Below are positions 1-19,177 of a stretch of DNA of 24,000 nucleotides, one piece after another. The notes beneath the pieces are model-generated. The model did not search any database, was not told where the DNA came from, and saw only the letters and a list, made by a program, of their open reading frames with translations. The DNA is from Candidatus Saccharimonadales bacterium. Lineage in GTDB: Bacteria; Patescibacteriota; Saccharimonadia; Saccharimonadales; UBA4665. Location of the stretch: NCBI GenBank assembly GCA_035479715.1, contig DATIIK010000003.1, positions 3,155 to 27,154 of the forward strand, given 5' to 3'. Position 1 is the stretch's first letter. Every line of letters starts with the position of its first letter. The translations under genes were made by a program, and so were the position numbers.

Positions 1-328
1 TCTGCGTAGGCATGGCAACACTGCTCAGGTACGTCTTGCAGGCCGTAATGACATCGGCTGCACTGGCTTCAGCGTCCAGGCCCAGCGCGGTGCGAATGCG
101 CGCTTCATCTTCCTGCAGTCGTATCTGGAGTGTATGGTACAGCTCCGGCCCGGTCGTATCCTGCGGGTCCAGGCCTAGTTCGCGGATCTTGGCGCGGGTT
201 TCGTTGATGATCTGCATCATCAGGCGGATGTCGGCCCCCGGCAACCCGGCCGCCTGTTCCAGACGCTGCAATTGCGTCCGCATGGTCGGCTCAGCCGTGC
301 CCATCAGTTGTGCCAGTACCCTCGACAT
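1..328 (-). CDS. hypothetical protein, N-terminal part (gene continues past the left edge)
   Basis: Absent from the ORF track because it has no stop in the window. The reverse complement from ATG at 328-326 stays open to the edge: MSRVLAQLMGTAEPTMRTQLQRLEQAAGLPGADIRLMMQIINETRAKIRELGLDPQDTTGPELYHTLQIRLQEDEARIR... This composition is balanced, whereas the listed + ORF 12..356 is Ser/Arg/Cys-rich and looks antisense. TGTGATAAT (extended -10-like) lies at 341-349 on the minus strand, 12 nt before the ATG. No family recognised. Confidence 0.5.
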   Translation of the reverse strand, partial: MSRVLAQLMGTAEPTMRTQLQRLEQAAGLPGADIRLMMQIINETRAKIRELGLDPQDTTGPELYHTLQIRLQEDEARIRTALGLDAEASAADVITACKTYLSSVAMPTQ

Positions 329-393
329 GATTACTTATAGATTATCACAAGCGTGATGCCAGGGGATAGTGAAATCATGCCGGATTGCCTGAC

Positions 394-414
394 CTCACAA
401 TGTAAGCTTGTGAG
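394..414. promoter_or_regulatory. perfect 7-bp palindrome CTCACAA-N7-TTGTGAG (operator-like or weak hairpin)
   Basis: Read directly: ctcacaa tgtaagc ttgtgag. It lies between the left end of the high-GC island and the promoter region of the gene starting at 328. No U-tract follows on either strand, so the function is unknown. Confidence 0.3.
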
Positions 415-446
415 CCCGGGCAATACCACATGAGATAGGGGGGTAG

Positions 447-459
447 AGTTGCAAGAGAG
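447..459. repeat. left copy of a 13-bp perfect inverted repeat (AGTTGCAAGAGAG) bracketing the high-GC island
   Basis: AGTTGCAAGAGAG at 447-459 is the exact reverse complement of CTCTCTTGCAACT at 1069-1081. Both copies sit at the composition change. Confidence 0.7.
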
Positions 460-488
460 GACAAAAGGCGATGAGGTGAGGCACGGGC

Positions 489-524
489 GGCCAGCGGTGC
501 AGTCCGAAGACTACGACGCTGGCC
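489..524 (-). terminator. stable stem-loop in the 3' UTR of the island ORF (terminator-like, no adjacent U-tract)
   Basis: Minus-strand RNA reads GGCCAGCG-UCGU-AGUC-UUCG-GACU-GCAC-CGCUGGCC. That is an 8-bp outer stem, an internal loop, and a 4-bp inner stem closed by a C(UUCG)G tetraloop. It lies about 70 nt after the stop at 596. A CCUUUUGU run follows about 25 nt later. Confidence 0.4.
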
Positions 525-595
525 GACCCGGCTCACTCATGGCCAATCAGCCCCTACCCCGCTGTGCGAGTGAGTACTGCCGACGGCGTAGCCAG

Positions 596-1003
596 CTACA
601 GGGAGACCGAGGGGCGCTCGACCATCTGAGCGAGGGCGTCGTGGTGGTACTCGAAGGCCCACTTGATCGCGTCCACGAGGTCACGGAGAGTAGTCGACTC
701 GACGGAGCCGAGGTCGTACTCACAGCGCTCGAGCGCCCGGGTGAACAGGGCGAAGGAACCGGAGGAAGCCGCGTGGTTGACCACGGAGGCCACGTAGGCG
801 AGCGCCTCGGCCCGGCTGTAGCCGTGTGCACCGGCGTTGTACCGGGCGATGTCCTTGATAACGAACAGCGCCTCGACACCGTAGCCGTTGAACCTGGGGA
901 ACAGGTCCTTGACCATCGGGTCGTCGGTGTTGAGGCCGAGCCGGGTGACGACGTCCTGGAGAATCTCCAAGTTCGTGACGGGCATGAGGATGGGACCGGG
1001 CAT
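596..1003 (-). CDS. hypothetical 135-aa protein encoded on a high-GC (actinobacterial-style) island
   Basis: Three long ORFs overlap here. This frame has about 90% G/C at third positions (13 of 136 codons end in A/T by hand count) and a balanced globular-looking composition. It also has a strong AGGAG Shine-Dalgarno (1010-1014, minus) 6 nt before the ATG at 1003. No Cys-rich, TM or recognisable catalytic motif, and no family recognised. Confidence 0.7.
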   Translation of the reverse strand: MPGPILMPVTNLEILQDVVTRLGLNTDDPMVKDLFPRFNGYGVEALFVIKDIARYNAGAHGYSRAEALAYVASVVNHAASSGSFALFTRALERCEYDLGSVESTTLRDLVDAIKWAFEYHHDALAQMVERPSVSL

Positions 1004-1068
1004 GATGTGCTCCTGTCGGGATCTAGAACCACTGCGGTAGCGGTCCTGTGTGGTGGGGGGTCGTCTAA

Positions 1069-1081
1069 CTCTCTTGCAACT
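1069..1081. repeat. right copy of the 13-bp inverted repeat (CTCTCTTGCAACT)
   Basis: Exact reverse complement of 447-459. In mRNA sense (minus strand) it lies in the 5' UTR of the island ORF, and the partner lies in the 3' UTR. Confidence 0.7.
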
Positions 1082-1130
1082 TCAAAATACACTCATGTTA
1101 GTGCGCATAGGCTGTATGCTAACTGAGCAA

Positions 1131-1139
1131 AATATATCA
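1131..1139 (-). promoter_or_regulatory. candidate extended -10 promoter element (TGATATATT) for the island ORF
   Basis: The minus strand reads TGaTATATT in AT-rich, host-like DNA just outside the inverted-repeat-bounded segment. There is no convincing -35. Sequence-only prediction. Confidence 0.3.
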
Positions 1140-1162
1140 TACTGTTTTTGCTTAAATACGTC

Positions 1163-1188
1163 AATACCCCTGTTGCGGCAGGGGTATT
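1163..1188 (-). terminator. rho-independent-type terminator hairpin downstream of the PfkB kinase gene
   Basis: Perfect 10-bp stem AATACCCCTG / CAGGGGTATT with a 6-nt loop, 24 nt after the stop at 1212. The U-tract is weak (stem ends UAUU). Confidence 0.5.
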
Positions 1189-1211
1189 GTGCGAAGTGTA
1201 CGGATCTGAAC

Positions 1212-8136: not shown

Positions 8137-8166
8137 TTGACCTTTTAAGCATTTTATTGTAAAAAT
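8137..8166 (+). promoter_or_regulatory. candidate divergent promoter of the orphan cassette (TTGACC-18 nt-TGtAAAAAT)
   Basis: TTGACC at 8137-8142 lies back-to-back with the gap -35. An extended -10-like TGTAAAAAT lies at 8158-8166. The -10 is a weak match, so confidence is low. Confidence 0.3.
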
Positions 8167-8205
8167 AATAGAGTCATCTTATGACAACCGAGAGAGGGCA
8201 CCGCT

Positions 8206-8607
8206 ATGAGTGGGGCACAGCAGTCAACAGTTCACACTGCCGAGATTCAAATCTTGGCAATGGAACCAACCGACAGCATCCTCGACCGCCTGGCACGACG
8301 AATATATCTGAGGCAGGTCGACCCCGTACTGCTAGGCCTTGTCGGCACTTCGCGCATCAACATCCGCATCGCCGTCAAATCCGACAGCATGGTGTATGCC
8401 ACTGAAGTCATGGACCACTGCGACGTTCGGGGCCTGCGCATCACGCGGCTCTATCTGAAGATACTGGATTTCTTCCCGGGTGCCTACATCATCGTGGACA
8501 TCGACGAGCAGAACTTCAAACAGCCCGTGCAGCGCTACACCAAGTGCGCCAGCGGTGACCCCGACGAGATCCGTGCGCTCCTGCTTCCGCAGCAGTCTGT
8601 GCAGTAA
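8206..8607 (+). CDS. hypothetical protein A of the orphan cassette (133 aa)
   Basis: Purine-rich SD GAGAGAGGG (8190-8198) lies 7 nt before the ATG at 8206. The overlapping ORFs 8181..8405 (+) and 8332..8727 (-) are Arg/Pro/His-rich and look non-coding. GC3 is about 74% by hand count. An internal Met (MEPTD) is an alternative start. No family recognised. Confidence 0.55.
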   Translation: MSGAQQSTVHTAEIQILAMEPTDSILDRLARRIYLRQVDPVLLGLVGTSRINIRIAVKSDSMVYATEVMDHCDVRGLRITRLYLKILDFFPGAYIIVDIDEQNFKQPVQRYTKCASGDPDEIRALLLPQQSVQ

Positions 8608-8642
8608 AGCCCCCGTAAAGACTACGACCGAAAGGTACAGAG

Positions 8643-9083
8643 ATGGACCCGAAAACCGTACTCTACACGATTCCGCGTACCGGCCACTGCAAGCACAACG
8701 ATCTGCAGACCCTGCTGGAAGCGGCACACGAGCGCAGCGCCTTCGGCTTCGGCGGAAGTCCGCCCCTGGACAGGCTCTACCTCAGCCACGATGACGGTCG
8801 CGGAACCTCTTGGGAGCTGTGCTACCTGGCCACCACGCTGACGCAAGCCGTTGCGCTGTTCCAGTGCACCGGCACTGATCATGACGGCAAGCCCGCTATG
8901 TTCTACGTCGGCGCGATCAAGACGAGCAGCACAACTGATTGGCACCTCACCCAACGGACGGTTATCGGTACCCCCATGCCGGAGTGCGACTACGAAGAGC
9001 TGCCGCTGCTCCCGCAGCTGCATAATCTGCAGTGGCACGGACAGGTGCTCGACCAGCTGGCCGCGAACGCTATCAGCGCCTGA
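8643..9083 (+). CDS. hypothetical protein B of the orphan cassette (146 aa)
   Basis: AAAGG lies 8 nt upstream of the ATG, 35 nt after gene A. The composition is balanced, and GC3 is about 80% by hand count. The antisense ORF 8622..9206 is Arg-rich junk-like. No family recognised. Confidence 0.6.
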   Translation: MDPKTVLYTIPRTGHCKHNDLQTLLEAAHERSAFGFGGSPPLDRLYLSHDDGRGTSWELCYLATTLTQAVALFQCTGTDHDGKPAMFYVGAIKTSSTTDWHLTQRTVIGTPMPECDYEELPLLPQLHNLQWHGQVLDQLAANAISA

Positions 9084-9181
9084 CCACTCTCTCGGTACTA
9101 TCAGTCGACAGAGGTCGTGGGAATGCTTTCGAGTGTCCGTTTCTGGACGCCTCCTTAAGTACATTCTCCCCTCTCTCGACC

Positions 9182-9248
9182 GCACGTTTACGAGTAGGGT
9201 CCTCATATCCAGAATCGTACTGATGAGTCCTAGCAGGACGAAACGTGT
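9182..9248 (+). ncRNA. type III hammerhead self-cleaving ribozyme motif (predicted cleavage after U9188)
   Basis: Read directly: stem III is 9182-9187 GCACGU paired with 9243-9248 ACGUGU. The cleavage triplet is GUU (H17 = U9188). Stem I is 9189-9193 UACGA paired with 9215-9219 UCGUA, with a 21-nt loop. The core CUGAUGA is at 9220-9226. Stem II is GUCCU (9227-9231) / AGGAC (9235-9239) with loop AGC, including the conserved G10.1-C11.1 pair. GAAA follows at 9240-9243. All invariant core positions are present. Confidence 0.85.
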
Positions 9249-9258
9249 TTAAGACAGC

Positions 9259-9289
9259 AAAACACCCCGAGTAAACGGGGTGTTTTATT
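9259..9289. terminator. bidirectional rho-independent terminator (cassette on +, ppa on -)
   Basis: 11-bp stem AAAACACCCCG / CGGGGTGTTTT with a 6-nt loop. A U-run follows on the + strand (UUUUAUU), and the A-run gives a U-run on the minus strand. It lies 16 nt after the ppa stop and 10 nt after the hammerhead. Confidence 0.7.
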
Positions 9290-10591: not shown

Positions 10592-11263
10592 ATGCGCGTG
10601 AGATTTACGCATAAGGAAGAGCTTGTTCCCAGTATCTGGCAGTATTTTTTTGTACCCGAGCGGCCGGTAGATTTCATACCGGGACAATATACCAGTTTCC
10701 ATATGACACGCCCGCTGGATGACCCCCGCGGCCAGAGCCGTGTCTTTTCGTTCACCTCACTCCCCTCCGACGAACATGTCAGTTTCGTTGCCAAGTTCGT
10801 GCCGCCACTCAGCCCTTATAAACAAGCCCTGCAGGCACTGCAGCCCGATGATGAACTGTGGGTCGAGGACGCCATGGGTGACCTAGTATTACCCAAGCTC
10901 ACTAGCGTGCCCTTAGTATTCATCGCCGGTGGCATCGGCCTGGCATCGTATATCAGTATGCTGCGGCAGCTTCTGACAGACCGCGAGGAGCGGCAGATAT
11001 TCCTGTTCTATGCCGTACGTAACCAAGCTGAGCAGATCTTCACCGATGTTTTAGGTGCCTACCCCCTAGCACTCAAGCACATCACCATCACACCCCACCG
11101 ATTGACCGCTGATGAGATAGTCGGATCGGTACCGCCGGATACATTCTATTACCTATCGGGCAGCCAGAGGTTTGTCGAAGGATTGCAGGCTGATTTTGAG
11201 CAAGTGGGCATCCCGCGCGAACGGATCGTGTTTGATTATTTTGACGGCTACACCGAACTCTAA
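10592..11263 (+). CDS. FNR-like FAD/NAD(P)-binding oxidoreductase
   Basis: 223 aa with an RVFSFTS (R-x-Y/F-S FAD-binding) motif and a GGIGLAS NAD(P)-binding motif typical of ferredoxin-reductase-type domains. Physiological partner unknown. Confidence 0.75.
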   Translation: MRVRFTHKEELVPSIWQYFFVPERPVDFIPGQYTSFHMTRPLDDPRGQSRVFSFTSLPSDEHVSFVAKFVPPLSPYKQALQALQPDDELWVEDAMGDLVLPKLTSVPLVFIAGGIGLASYISMLRQLLTDREERQIFLFYAVRNQAEQIFTDVLGAYPLALKHITITPHRLTADEIVGSVPPDTFYYLSGSQRFVEGLQADFEQVGIPRERIVFDYFDGYTEL

Positions 11264-11290
11264 AAAGGCGCCGCTTATGAACGCCTTTTT
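11262..11290. terminator. candidate bidirectional terminator between convergent genes
   Basis: AAAAAGGCG (11262-11270) / CGCCTTTTT (11282-11290) with an 11-nt loop. The GC core is short (4 bp), so it is weak. Confidence 0.4.
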
Positions 11291-11304
11291 GGTTTTGCTG
11301 CTTG

Positions 11305-12264
11305 TTAGTTCTGGATGGGGTGGTGCCGGCCTTCGAGATACTCGCGGATCTTGAGTGCTGCCGTGGCGCCTTCGCCGGCCGCGCTGGCAATCTGCATAGT
11401 GGCACAGCTGCGGATATCACCCGCTACAAATACGCCCTTCATGTTGGTCTGAAGGTTCTCGTCGCTCTTTACCAGATGGATGTGGTCCAGCTCGATGCCG
11501 CTGCCTTCCAGGAATTCGCTGTTCGGCTTGAGCCCCACGAATACGAAGACGCCATCAGTTGGGAATTCGACCTTTTTGCCGTCATGGGTACCCACCACTT
11601 TAGTAACTGAGCTGTTCTCGCCCGCTATCTCATCAGTAGTTACACCCAGGTGGACGGTCACTTTGCCTTCATCGACGTACTTTTGCAGATCGTGCTGCAA
11701 TACATCGCTAGCCTTGATAGTGCTGCGCACCAGCAGGTCTATGTGCGTGGCAAAACGGGTCAGGAACATTGCCTCCTGGATAGCGCTGTTGCCGCCACCG
11801 ACCACGACCAGCCGCTTGTCACGGTAAAAAGCGCCGTCGCAGGTAGCGCAGTAGTGGACACCGCGGGCGTAATATTCCTGCTCGCCCGGTACGCCAATTT
11901 TCTTATAATCACTGCCGGTTGCAATCAGGACAGCCTTGGCTCGCATGTCTCCGCTGGTAGTCTCCAGCCGTTTCCAAGCGCCTTCGTCATGGATCTTGAG
12001 CACCTCGCCTAGTTCTATCTCGGCGCCGAACCGTTCAGCCTGCTTCTGCAGGTTGCCAGCCAGTTCCAGTCCAGCGATGCCCTCGGGGAAACCCGGATAG
12101 TTATCAACCCAGTCGGTCACTGCCGCCAAGCCGCCAGGCACGCCTCGCTCGAACAGCAGTGTGTCGATGTCCTCACGCGTGGTATATATAGCTGCACTGA
12201 GCGCCGCTGGGCCTGCACCGATAATAATCACGTCATGTTCTGGAACGGCTGCCGTCTCGGCCAT
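11305..12264 (-). CDS. trxB: thioredoxin-disulfide reductase
   Basis: GAGPAALSAA FAD motif, redox-active CATCDG and GGGNSAIQEA NADPH motif. The start is moved to ATG 12264 (MAETAAV...) because AAGGGAGAG lies 5 nt upstream. The track start at 12321 has no SD. Confidence 0.9.
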   Translation of the reverse strand: MAETAAVPEHDVIIIGAGPAALSAAIYTTREDIDTLLFERGVPGGLAAVTDWVDNYPGFPEGIAGLELAGNLQKQAERFGAEIELGEVLKIHDEGAWKRLETTSGDMRAKAVLIATGSDYKKIGVPGEQEYYARGVHYCATCDGAFYRDKRLVVVGGGNSAIQEAMFLTRFATHIDLLVRSTIKASDVLQHDLQKYVDEGKVTVHLGVTTDEIAGENSSVTKVVGTHDGKKVEFPTDGVFVFVGLKPNSEFLEGSGIELDHIHLVKSDENLQTNMKGVFVAGDIRSCATMQIASAAGEGATAALKIREYLEGRHHPIQN

Positions 12265-16080: not shown

Positions 16081-16448
16081 GGCGAGGCAGCCAAAGGGCG
16101 CCATCAAAGCCATGATCTTTCTCAGACCATCAGGCCACGTAGGAACGGGGCGCAGGGGGCCAGCCTCTCAACAAGCAAACGCGGATTGTACCGCAGCTCA
16201 CTAGTCGGAGTATAACCAGCCCCCTGCGCGTCTTACCCGCACACATGGCATTGCTGCTCGAAAGGAGCGCAGTCAACACCACGGCGCGTCGCATAGGTCT
16301 TACAGCGGCGAGCTGAGTTCCGCCAGTTGCGTCCGGTAACGCAACAGAGCCATGCGACAAGTGCAAAGCACGGCTGACAGCCATAGCCGTCCCGGGGACT
16401 AGTCCGGCGCCAACGCTTCTGTACGGGCGAATGGTAAAGCTCCTCGCC
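16081..16448 (-). ncRNA. unclassified structured RNA candidate (~368 nt), possibly a divergent RNase P RNA
   Basis: The 645-bp gap has no credible ORF and holds nested helices. The terminal helix is GGCGAGG (16081-16087) / CCTCGCC (16442-16448), with GGCGCC at 16097-16102 / 16406-16411 inside it. An 11-bp helix pairs 16150-16160 with 16219-16229. Local hairpins lie at 16181-16194, 16256-16268, 16326-16345 and 16361-16371, and 16288-16297 pairs with 16350-16358. Read on the minus strand, RNase P-like motifs occur in the right order: GGACUAGUCCCCGGG, GUGCGGGUAAGACGCGCA, GGUACAAUCC, GAUGG and GGCUUU. However, the P4-like pairing is poor. Strand and identity are unresolved. Confidence 0.4.
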
Positions 16449-16660: not shown

Positions 16661-19177
16661 TTATATTCGCTCTGCCGCACAGGCACCGTGCGCTGCGTTC
16701 GCGACGCTGTCGAGAATCTTGGTGACCTCTGCATCGGTCAAGGTCCGCTGGTAGTGAGTAACATCCAGACGGTAGGTGACATTCTTGTAATCAGCTCCCG
16801 CTTCCTGGTAGATATCCAGTACCGAGGTTTTGACCGCATACTGCTCGGCAGAGAGGGCGGCAACCATACTCCTGACAACCGTGTCCAGCTCGCCAACCGG
16901 CGTATCAGCAGCGATCTTAAGGGTAATATCTTGGCTTACCTTCGGGAAACGTGACAAAGGTGTATACGTGGCAGTATCCGGCCGCATTGCCGACAGAAAA
17001 AGTTCAAAGCCAGCACAAAAATCAGGCAGTTTGAGCGCTTTCATGACGCTGCGCTTATAGTCGCCGATGATGCCGAGCGGACGCTCGCCGCTGTAGAGCA
17101 TGGCCGCACGCTGCAGGTCGAATGGCGCTGCCATCTGCATCAGCATCCGATGCCCCTGCAGGTCAGCCTTGGCTAGTGGTACGATTGTAACCGCGGGCAG
17201 ATCGATCAGGAGCCCCGCAAAACGCTGTGCCTGGTAATACGGCGCACCACCATATTCGCGGGCCGCCGTCTTTGGTTCGGCGGCAAATACGAATGATATA
17301 CGGCCGAATTCGCGCGGCAGCCCATCGTCTTCGGTTTCTGACACGCCATGTGCCTTACCGATCTCAAACAGGGCGAAACGATCGTACCCCGCCTTTATAT
17401 TCATATGAACCTTATCGAGCAGGCTAGGTGTCAGGCTAACGCGGTAATATTGCAAGTCCGGGCTCAGGGCATTGCTCACCTGAAACGCCTCTTCGACTTG
17501 CTGGCCGGCCTTTTTCAGCAGGTCGCCATGCACGAAGCTATATGCCAGCACTTCGTTGGCACCAGCCCGGGCCAACCGGGCACGGATCATCGCCTTCAAC
17601 TCCAGTTTTTCGTCTTTCTGCACTGGCATGATACTACGCTTGGGCAGTTCCAGCGGCAGCTTATCAAAGCCATAAAGGCGGCCGATCTCCTCCACTACAT
17701 CCTCACGTGTTTCGATGTCGGTTCGCCAGAAAGGCGCCGTAACAGTCAGCTGGTCGCCCTCGACCTGAACGCTGCACTCGACATTTTCAAGCAGCTGCCG
17801 CATGTCATCCGCACTCAATGCAAAACCCAACCGTTCATTGATAAACCCGACCGATACCGGTACCGGCGGATGCACCCAGACCCTGCCCTCTACCTGGCTG
17901 ATATCGATAGCGTCGCCTGCTACGGTACCACCGGCCAGCGTGCGTGTTTCGTGCACTGCCTTGGCCAGGACATACGGATTCTGCAGTGGTGACTGGCCCT
18001 TGTTAAAGCGTGTCACCGCATCGGTAAAGAGTCCGTGCGCCATACTGGTGCGGCGGATAGAATACATATCGAAGGTCGCTACCTCGATAATAATGCGTGT
18101 TGTTTCGTCGCTGACCTCCGTAGAGGCACCGCCCATGACCCCACCGACACCGATCAGATGGTCACCGCTGGCAATCATGATAGCTTCCGAACGCGGAGCG
18201 ATTTCTTTGCCACTCAAAAGCGTAATCTTCTCGTCGCTGCGTGGGTAGCGAACCGTGATTTCGGCCCCTGCACCGCTGGTAAGCGCCGCAACCTTGTCGT
18301 AATCATACGCATGGAGCGGCTGGCCGGTCAGGCACATCAGGTAATTGGTCATATCGACGATATTGTTGATGGGGCGTAAACCTAGGCGCACCAGGTGGAT
18401 TTGCAACCACAGCGGGCTTGGACCGACCGTGACATTGCTCATAGGGATAGCCATGAAACGCGGCACCAGTTCAGGCAGTTCATTCGTAACCGTCAGTGGC
18501 AGCGCCTCGGCCTCGATAGCCAGGCTGTACTTTTCGGTGCCATACCAATCCGGACCGACGAATTTCTGCTGCTGTATGCCCGCCAGTTCGCGGTATACGC
18601 CGAGCAGGCCGAAACAGTCCGGGCGATGGGTGAACATTTTGTTTTCGATATCAATGATGTAGTCGTGCAGGTTATAGGCATCGGCGAACGAGGTACCGGG
18701 CGCAATTTCTTCATCAATTTCCAGGATACCCTCGTGGCTATCACCTAGTCCCAGCTCACGCGGGCTGGCCAGCATGCCGTTACTTTTAACACCGCGCAGC
18801 TCGCGCGTACCGAGCACGAACGGATCCTTGCCGTAGCTCTCGGGCACCGTCGTTCCCGGAGGCAGCCAGACAGCGCGCAGGCCGGCACGGACATTGGGCG
18901 CGCCACACACTACCTGCACCAGACCTTCGGCGTCGCGTTCGACACCCTCGACCTTACCGCCGTCGTCGATCTTGCAGACATGCATATGGTCGGAATCTGG
19001 GTGGGACTCACATGCGTTCACGTGCACAACCAGCGCGCCCGCGAACGGGGCGCCAAAATCAATTACTTCCTCGACAGCACCGAGCTGTGCGCCGATGGCC
19101 TCGGCCAAGCCGTCCACATCGTCCTGCAACAGATCTAGGTTCGTATAGAATTTTGCGAGAGAAAGGGGGGCTTTCAT
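16661..19177 (-). CDS. pheT: phenylalanine--tRNA ligase beta subunit
   Basis: 838 aa with an N-terminal tRNA-binding (OB) domain (VVCGAPNVRAG, SNGMLAS), B3/4 and B5 regions and a C-terminal anticodon-binding-like domain. The ATG overlaps the upstream gene stop (ATGA at 19174-19177). Confidence 0.95.
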   Translation of the reverse strand: MKAPLSLAKFYTNLDLLQDDVDGLAEAIGAQLGAVEEVIDFGAPFAGALVVHVNACESHPDSDHMHVCKIDDGGKVEGVERDAEGLVQVVCGAPNVRAGLRAVWLPPGTTVPESYGKDPFVLGTRELRGVKSNGMLASPRELGLGDSHEGILEIDEEIAPGTSFADAYNLHDYIIDIENKMFTHRPDCFGLLGVYRELAGIQQQKFVGPDWYGTEKYSLAIEAEALPLTVTNELPELVPRFMAIPMSNVTVGPSPLWLQIHLVRLGLRPINNIVDMTNYLMCLTGQPLHAYDYDKVAALTSGAGAEITVRYPRSDEKITLLSGKEIAPRSEAIMIASGDHLIGVGGVMGGASTEVSDETTRIIIEVATFDMYSIRRTSMAHGLFTDAVTRFNKGQSPLQNPYVLAKAVHETRTLAGGTVAGDAIDISQVEGRVWVHPPVPVSVGFINERLGFALSADDMRQLLENVECSVQVEGDQLTVTAPFWRTDIETREDVVEEIGRLYGFDKLPLELPKRSIMPVQKDEKLELKAMIRARLARAGANEVLAYSFVHGDLLKKAGQQVEEAFQVSNALSPDLQYYRVSLTPSLLDKVHMNIKAGYDRFALFEIGKAHGVSETEDDGLPREFGRISFVFAAEPKTAAREYGGAPYYQAQRFAGLLIDLPAVTIVPLAKADLQGHRMLMQMAAPFDLQRAAMLYSGERPLGIIGDYKRSVMKALKLPDFCAGFELFLSAMRPDTATYTPLSRFPKVSQDITLKIAADTPVGELDTVVRSMVAALSAEQYAVKTSVLDIYQEAGADYKNVTYRLDVTHYQRTLTDAEVTKILDSVANAAHGACAAERI

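Follow-up and report, generated by a model that had tools for sequence, protein, structure and literature searches.

The genomic segment analyzed here (Candidatus Saccharimonadales bacterium, assembly GCA_035479715.1, contig DATIIK010000003.1, positions 3,155 to 27,154; 24,000 nucleotides, referred to in its whole length as the window) carries on its minus strand, between pfkB and a gene encoding a 410-aa protein (p410), a small cassette comprising a promoter, a leader, an open reading frame (ORF) for a 135-aa protein (596-1003), and a 3′ untranslated region (UTR). The two UTRs contain the arms of a perfect 13-bp inverted repeat, and the DNA enclosed by them is rich in G+C. The lineage-specific genes of Saccharibacteria and other members of the candidate phyla radiation (CPR), whose genomes are tiny, are for the most part uncharacterized. 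A sequence-only reading of the window, made without database searches, regarded the cassette as a single-gene island bracketed by the repeat and likely acquired horizontally. The comparisons presented here point to an older unit, whose mRNA may be closed by pairing between its own UTRs.

Repeat arms, base composition, and integrity of the locus

One arm of the repeat, AGTTGCAAGAGAG, occupies 447-459; the other, at 1069-1081, is its exact reverse complement, as the sequence-only reading had described, and 609 nt lie between them. The jump in composition that it placed at these boundaries was reproduced: the G+C content (GC) of 200-nt windows reaches 0.645-0.67 at 501-900 compared with 0.47 at 1001-1200 and a window mean of 0.558, and, in mRNA sense, GC is 0.34 upstream of the 5′ arm (promoter and leader), 0.60-0.66 between the arms, and 0.48 past the 3′ arm. 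The step falls at the arms in all three loci known to carry such a cassette (0.31-0.34 outside and 0.52-0.67 inside, UTR parts included). The search for further copies of the 13-mer, which had been proposed as a check, returned no stray copies in the window with up to two mismatches allowed, and a 12-mer of the repeat occurs only at the two arms in 33 kb of this genome (the window and its extension L001) and not at all in about 170 kb from 14 related loci. The pheT coding region contains another perfect 13-bp inverted repeat with arms less than 1 kb apart (16301-16313 and 17083-17095); it is most likely a chance occurrence, 0.43 being expected per window.

The window matches the reverse strand of contig CAZMOC010000004.1 (metagenome-assembled genome (MAG) GCA_964568015.1), and the nearest genomes are all Saccharibacteria/Saccharimonadales MAGs, in agreement with the Saccharibacteria-like host supposed from the sequence. 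Misassembly or a chimera at the cassette is unlikely because an independent assembly, Logan contig L002, spans both junctions and shows 100% identity over 2651 bp. No target-site duplication was found at the arms, which are flanked by GGGGGTAG on one side and TCAAAATA on the other, and no recombinase or transposase domain was detected in the window or L001.

Two further cassettes were available for comparison, both recognized through their encoded proteins. P0003 is encoded on L018, a 1.5-kb root-metagenome contig on which the cassette directly follows a pfkB gene; the product of this gene and its counterpart in the window are 96.8% identical. P0002 is encoded on L017, a 693-bp contig sharing the hairpin over the -35 box, the -10 box, hairpin 1, the CATGAGT and GTTGCAAGAGAG blocks, hairpin 2, and ACAGGAG (all described below).

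Anatomy of the untranslated regions

All features of the cassette are given on the minus strand. Its upstream end is marked by the terminator-type hairpin of pfkB (CAATACCCCTG/CAGGGGTATTG, 1162-1189), an 11-bp perfect inverted repeat that overlaps the -35 box of the cassette promoter and is retained in L018 and L017, with different stem sequences. The promoter (TTGACG-17-TATGAT, 1136-1164) is of the sigma-70 type, matches the consensus at 10 of 12 positions, was the one strong site in the promoter scan, and lies outside the repeat, where the sequence-only reading had placed it; its blocks ATTGA and ATAATAT/ATGATAT are conserved in L018 and L017. The transcript start was placed at about 1128 from the -10 box, giving a leader of 125 nt, and the 3′ end is likewise a prediction.

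The leader contains the sequence blocks GCTCAGKTAGCATA...CATGAGT...GTTGCAAGAGAG and opens, at the predicted 5′ end of the transcript, with hairpin 1 (1091-1128), which is found in both the minimum free energy (MFE) and the centroid folds, is conserved in the three loci, and is followed by a U-run at about 1083-1088. In our reading of the alignment, this hairpin contains one compensatory pair, U-A in the window and L018 and G-C in L017. The 5′ arm (AGUUGCAAGAGAG in the mRNA, 1069-1081) is identical in L018 and matches at 12 of 13 bases in L017, and in each of the three loci precisely 65 nt separate its end from the ATG. Just downstream, the extension GACGA (1061-1065) pairs with UUGUC (460-464) past a 3-nt bulge in both the MFE and the centroid fold; in L018 it reads GACAA/UUGUC, so that a G-U pair is replaced by A-U. 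Hairpin 2 (GGACCGCUA-CCG-CAGUGGUUC, 1025-1047) belongs to the RNAalifold consensus of the three loci, one of its pairs being G-U, G-C, and A-U across the three sequences. The Shine-Dalgarno sequence AGGAG (1010-1014), which had been recognized in the sequence-only reading together with a UUCG hairpin, lies 6 nt before the ATG within an ACAGGAG motif invariant in the three loci. A leader mini-ORF (MSVF*) has no Shine-Dalgarno sequence and is not conserved in L017.

The 3′ UTR contains that UUCG hairpin (485-528), in which the UUCG-capped inner stem is set on an outer stem, GGCCAGCG/CGCUGGCC, and in which the block CAGUCUU.G.ACUGCACCGCUGGCCGCCCG shows about 90% identity with L018. It is followed by the 3′ arm (CUCUCUUGCAACU) with its UUGUC extension (447-464). 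For the window as well as for L018, the MFE and the centroid structure both show this stretch paired with the 5′ arm; the 20-nt 3′ block UUUGUCCUCUCUUGCAACUC is identical in L018. Past the 3′ arm, a long imperfect hairpin (375-433; 26-nt arms, 77% complementary) is a possible transcript end, although its score is not that of a canonical intrinsic terminator. When the window transcript (1128-365) was folded, and that of L018 likewise, the helix formed by the two arms and their extension enclosed hairpin 2, the Shine-Dalgarno sequence, the ORF, and the 3′ hairpin. The placement of the arms in the 5′ and 3′ UTRs by the sequence-only reading is thus retained.

Searches against Rfam 15 returned no relevant match for positions 250-1300 at E ≤ 5 and none for the whole window at E ≤ 0.1. 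The promoter scan gave no antisense promoter at the cassette, and no antisense small RNA was identified.

A perfect 13-bp inverted repeat around a segment of about 600 bp, with a fixed promoter next to it, also recalls invertons, which are invertible DNA segments between short inverted repeats. An invertase flipping the 609-bp segment relative to the promoter just outside it would make the whole gene subject to an on/off switch, and the strict conservation of both arms without covariation would be compatible with such a role. We nevertheless regard an inverton as improbable. A single orientation was seen in four assembled copies or loci, no invertase is encoded within 33 kb, and the whole gene rather than a promoter would be flipped. 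Moreover, the flipped segment would put just M-R-stop or a by-product ORF behind the leader, and a role in the RNA accounts better for the conserved hairpins and the 65-nt spacing.

The encoded protein and its family

The codon-position GC of the ORF is 0.64/0.40/0.90, with a frequency of adenine at third positions (A3) of 0.01. In the 31 other genes of the window and L001, third-position GC (GC3) ranges from 0.46 to 0.74 (mean 0.63, standard deviation (sd) 0.057), which places the ORF 4.7 sd above the mean and agrees with the earlier hand count of about 90%, unlike every other gene. C-ending codons are the commonest class in the neighboring genes too, and GC3 is 0.68 in GAPDH and 0.60 in FBA.

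The 135-aa product, in which the sequence-only reading had recognized nothing familiar, has no match to any known family or fold in the databases searched. Scans of three family members against Pfam, NCBIfam, PHROGs, and PADLOC gave no match, and in a word-indexed search of 5.8 billion proteins the product matched only itself. A HMMER scan of 1.84 billion cluster representatives identified P0002 (146 aa, E = 6e-10) and P0003 (170 aa, E = 9e-5), and a profile search with the three sequences added no further members. A profile search of PDB sequences returned only noise (E ≥ 0.09). Searches of phages and plasmids (tblastn and blastn) gave a non-significant Streptomyces plasmid match (E = 0.7) and a 46-nt Pseudomonas phage match, both of which were rejected.

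The motifs FPRF(N/D)G(Y/W)G.E and IKW are common to all three proteins, which are acidic (isoelectric point (pI) 4.5-5.05). The 135-aa protein itself has a pI of 5.05 and a grand average of hydropathy (GRAVY) of 0.09 and is predicted to be all-helical. AlphaFold2 (AF2) supplied with the 3-sequence alignment predicted seven helices with a predicted local distance difference test score (pLDDT) of 89.8 and a predicted template modeling score (pTM) of 0.85, compared with a pLDDT of 56 in the single-sequence run, and Foldseek comparisons of both the low- and the high-confidence models with PDB and BFVD gave at best E ~1 and a template modeling (TM) score of ≤ 0.36. The model describes a product that would be a cytoplasmic, acidic, compact, soluble seven-helix protein. 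Since codon GC is periodic, two remote homologs share its motifs, the confidence of the AF2 model rises with the alignment, and an independent assembly is identical, the ORF is a genuine coding gene of a very small family with a fold without a recognizable match.

As the sequence-only reading had stated, the overlapping frames are open (449-1126 on the plus strand and 547-1092 on the minus strand). The plus-strand frame (225 aa) runs from arm to arm, as does its counterpart in L018 (250 aa), and if it were a real or second gene, avoidance of stops in it could account for the scarcity of adenine at third positions of the sense ORF. Dual coding was rejected, however, because three stop codons break the frame in L017, and for the same reason the long antisense ORF is a by-product of the near-absence of adenine at third positions. 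The codon-position GC and the conserved motifs fit the minus-strand ORF and AF2 folds the sense protein confidently, so that we consider an antisense gene extremely unlikely.

Divergence between the cassettes and persistence of their composition

The contrast between the parts of the cassette is most evident in the comparison of the window with L018. Of the 4-fold degenerate sites in pfkB, 68% differ, as do 50% of all third codon positions, and because synonymous sites are thus saturated, the two genomes represent different species that separated long ago. Across this distance, both repeat arms and the 20-nt block are 100% identical, and identity amounts to 87% in the leader from the predicted transcription start to the 5′ arm, 79% between that arm and the ATG, and about 90% in the 3′-UTR hairpin block; the encoded proteins share only 27% identity. 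Over the whole family, the proteins are 27-31% identical between conserved ends. The alignments therefore indicate that the cassette is old and that its UTRs are under strong selection. The protein evolves much faster than its own UTRs, and it is a guess that this reflects an arms-race role, e.g., in immunity or anti-defense. Given saturated synonymous sites, 27% protein identity requires only weak constraint and no replacement of the cassette.

GC3 of the cassette gene is 0.90 in the window, 0.91 in L018, and 0.75 in L017, with A3 of 0.01-0.02, while that of pfkB is 0.69 in the window and 0.55 in L018. The two lineages of the window and L018 are saturated at neutral sites and their pfkB genes have drifted apart in GC3, yet the bias is just as extreme in one as in the other; the comparison thus indicates that it is maintained or repeatedly renewed, rather than left from a recent import.

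In the three cassettes, conservation sets in about 110 nt ahead of the 5′ arm, and the conserved module takes in the terminator hairpin of pfkB, both promoter boxes (-35 and -10), and hairpin 1. Judged by these alignments, the cassette would not be a recent repeat-bounded import: the module exceeds the arms, no donor homolog was found, and the high GC3 persists in two lineages. Two claims of the sequence-only reading, that the repeat brackets an island and that the gene was likely acquired horizontally, taken here as a recent transfer from Actinobacteria or an actinophage, are consequently not supported. In addition to the reach of the module, the inserted DNA, compared with empty sites in other genomes, extends from the pfkB stop codon through to the p410 promoter with no target-site duplication, and homologs were found only in the three Saccharibacteria-type cassettes.

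The pfkB-p410 interval in related genomes

The empty-site comparison proposed in the sequence-only reading was performed for the interval between pfkB and p410 (window 329-1211) at 14 other Saccharibacteria loci (L003-L016). The cassette gene was found at this site in none of the 14. In seven of these loci the interval is empty and measures 59-192 bp, and in the other seven it contains unrelated lineage-specific genes: small reverse-strand ORFs in L004 and L005, a gene for a secreted-looking 247-aa protein in L007 and L011, a 140-aa ORF in L009, and other reverse-strand ORFs in L013 and L015. The interval is therefore a variable slot in which the cassette was gained at some time.

The variability of the slot, together with the coincidence of the GC step with the arms in three loci, an A3 of the kind found in high-GC taxa, and proteins so divergent between conserved ends, could also be explained by an exchangeable GC-rich cassette drawn from a high-GC pool (Actinobacteria, phages, or an unsampled Saccharibacteria element), with the arms serving as recombination sites and perhaps with repeated replacement. 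No member of such a pool was found among the 5.8 billion and 1.84 billion proteins or among phages, plasmids, and viral contigs. Pattern scans with the leader and arm DNA gave five matches in metagenome contigs, all in unrelated coding or other contexts, and 0, 26, and 44 matches in viral contigs, none with both arms, the protein, or an extended match, and thus attributable to chance. The reach of conservation outside the 5′ arm, the lack of a recombinase in the window and L001, the saturation of pfkB synonymous sites, at which replacement need not be invoked, and the fact that all known copies of the cassette appear to lie at one locus also speak against exchange, which we consider unlikely, though the most plausible of the alternatives.

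The surrounding genes are those of glycolysis and the pentose-phosphate pathway (PfkB kinase, class II aldolase, a split transketolase, Rpe, RpiB, and GAPDH); these lie on the pfkB side, and uvrB is located beyond. The p410 gene (window 2-328, minus strand, continuing in L001 at 10676-11908) lies downstream of the cassette, and its product is kept in all 14 related loci at 32-66% identity, with no Pfam match even at E ≤ 1. A motif conserved upstream of it, GCTTGTG(A/G)TAA, resembles an extended -10 box, and its start is almost leaderless. L013 (JBBCFY010000009.1, 4769-12771) is the nearest GTDB relative, with a PfkB about 85% identical. Its tblastn matches to FBA, pfkB, p410, and uvrB are each broken into several frames, which suggests long-read frameshift errors rather than pseudogenes.

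A second orphan cassette in the window

The plus strand of the window carries another cassette (8137-9289), to which the sequence-only reading had attributed the same end-to-end complementarity, and this complementarity was found. Its promoter (TTGACC-17-TAAAAT, 8137-8165) is followed by a 5′-terminal hairpin, two ORFs without a family match (8206-8607, 133 aa; 8643-9083, 146 aa), and a terminator (9259-9286). The 146-aa protein, the one of the two that was searched, is a singleton among 5.8 billion proteins. The Shine-Dalgarno region GAGAGAGGG (8190-8198) is complementary to two boxes in the 3′ UTR (9087-9096 and 9169-9178), and in the MFE and centroid folds ACCGAGAGAGGG of this region pairs with the first box, CUCUCUCGGU. 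As a genome-wide UTR signal, AGAGAG/CTCTCT occurs at chance level.

Just upstream of the terminator, the 3′ UTR of this second cassette contains a candidate hammerhead-like (type III) ribozyme (9182-9248), with the core elements CUGAUGA (9220-9226) and GAAA (9240-9243), stem II GUCC/GGAC, stem III GCACGU/ACGUGU, and stem I UACGA/UCGUA with a loop of about 21 nt. Its MFE fold is a three-way junction, and cleavage is predicted after GUU at 9188. The candidate scores only 21 bits with the Rfam Hammerhead_3 model, below the gathering cut-off of 48.5. Bacterial hammerheads have been described flanking single genes in prophages (PMC3088659). No ribozyme was found in the 3′ UTR of the 135-aa cassette, either by Rfam or by the CTGATGA...GAAA pattern, which has no match inside that cassette. 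A second occurrence of the pattern, CTGATGATGCAGATCATCAACGAAA at about 199-223 on the minus strand, lies in the p410 coding sequence and has no convincing stem II; a pattern this loose would turn up about 0.7 times by chance in the sequence that was searched.

Discussion

We propose, with about as much confidence as doubt, that the cassette forms a complete transcription unit of its own, encoding an orphan protein specific to one Saccharibacteria subclade, and that its mRNA is closed by a helix between the UTRs. According to this model, the sigma-70-type promoter would start the 125-nt leader, which would open with a terminal hairpin. The 13-nt 5′ arm and GACGA would then pair with UUGUC and the 13-nt 3′ arm in the 3′ UTR, so that a single GC-rich domain would hold the Shine-Dalgarno sequence together with the ORF and the conserved 3′ hairpin. 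The closing helix (about 18 bp with a 3-nt bulge) may act on the RNA, influencing mRNA stability or processing and possibly translational competence, and it is a plausible RNase III or exonuclease-blocking determinant. The arms most likely have their role at the RNA level, as the arm-arm folds were obtained in two loci, the extension and the hairpin pairs change between the cassettes, and the second cassette has the same design; we infer that the arms lie on one transcript, pair in vivo, and affect stability or translation.

To our knowledge, 5′ UTR-3′ UTR pairing has been documented in just a handful of bacterial mRNAs. In Staphylococcus aureus icaR, pairing at the Shine-Dalgarno region has been shown experimentally (PMC3868564), and in the Bacillus subtilis hbs mRNA, 5′ UTR-3′ UTR base-pairing blocks ribonuclease entry (PMC5737220). 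The cassette resembles both in having complementary segments in the two UTRs of one mRNA with predicted pairing, and differs from them in its predicted helix, which has a greater length (13 + 5 bp) and would enclose the entire ORF. It also differs from icaR in that its 5′ arm ends 65 nt before the ATG, leaving the Shine-Dalgarno sequence uncovered. The second cassette comes closer, since its Shine-Dalgarno region would be paired with CU-rich 3′-UTR boxes exactly as in icaR, and it is also hbs-like.

In type I toxin mRNAs of the hok type, end-to-end pairing through a fold-back inhibition element (fbi) gives a compact, stable mRNA. End-to-end pairing, a 5′-terminal hairpin, and 3′ processing elements are common to hok and the cassette, although the latter encodes a 135-aa soluble acidic protein instead of a small hydrophobic toxin and no antisense small RNA was identified. 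Phage morons are autonomous promoter-gene-terminator units of deviant composition. Like them, the cassette comprises one gene, flanked by a promoter and a hairpin terminator of its own, has a deviant GC, and occupies a variable site between conserved genes; it is dissimilar in its chromosomal housekeeping context without a prophage and in being old and conserved at one locus. By analogy, the cassette appears to be a variation on known kinds, combining features of UTR-paired mRNAs with those of moron-like accessory genes.

Several observations weigh against the proposed model. The whole-transcript folding z-scores (-5.0 and -3.6) may be inflated, because shuffling mixes the AT-rich leader with the GC-rich body. 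Synonymous-codon permutation revealed no extra structure in the ORF (z = -1.5, -0.4, and 0.0) and nothing beyond control genes, so that RNA structure is not an obvious cause of the GC3 bias. The closing helix, unlike that of icaR, does not cover the Shine-Dalgarno sequence. Both arms are present in two loci only, no covariation occurs inside the 13-bp helix, the arms being identical wherever both were seen, and a DNA-level role, such as a protein-binding or recombination site, fits this conservation equally well. The lasting GC3 of about 0.9 and the contrast between conserved UTRs and a hyperdivergent protein are the most puzzling elements of the cassette.

Furthermore, a perfect 13-bp inverted repeat within 1 kb occurs in 28% of Markov-shuffled windows. 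The 13-bp repeat alone is insignificant, and its significance derives from the conservation of the arms across a divergence at which neutral sites are saturated. This chance frequency, along with the prevalence of C-ending codons in the neighboring genes, would be compatible with an ordinary small gene with expression-driven codon bias and a coincidental repeat. Such a gene would, however, not be expected to keep arms and extensions identical across saturated divergence (the G-U to A-U change aside) or to exceed in GC3 the usually highly expressed GAPDH and FBA, and the GC enrichment extends to the non-coding parts between the arms; we consider this explanation about as improbable as an inverton.

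It is also conceivable, although we hold it to be slightly less probable still, that the arm-delimited domain is a self-maintaining or renewable module, in which the enclosed DNA is kept GC-rich and the protein is driven to extreme divergence while the ends stay fixed. Candidate processes would be site-specific cassette exchange, targeted or RNA-templated hypermutation, and strongly GC-biased gene conversion. If true, this would represent a diversification mechanism previously undescribed in CPR bacteria.

For the detection of horizontal gene transfer, the cassette is a reason for caution, as a GC3 outlier of 4.7 sd resembles fresh foreign DNA, yet the bias has outlasted saturating divergence. 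The tiny family, with three members recovered against 5.8 billion proteins, a confident predicted fold without a PDB or BFVD match, and faster evolution than that of its own UTRs, shows a pattern typical of conflict-related proteins. The two independent orphan cassettes located 8 kb apart, one of them with a hammerhead-like ribozyme candidate, may serve as compact, testable candidates for UTR pairing in Saccharibacteria.

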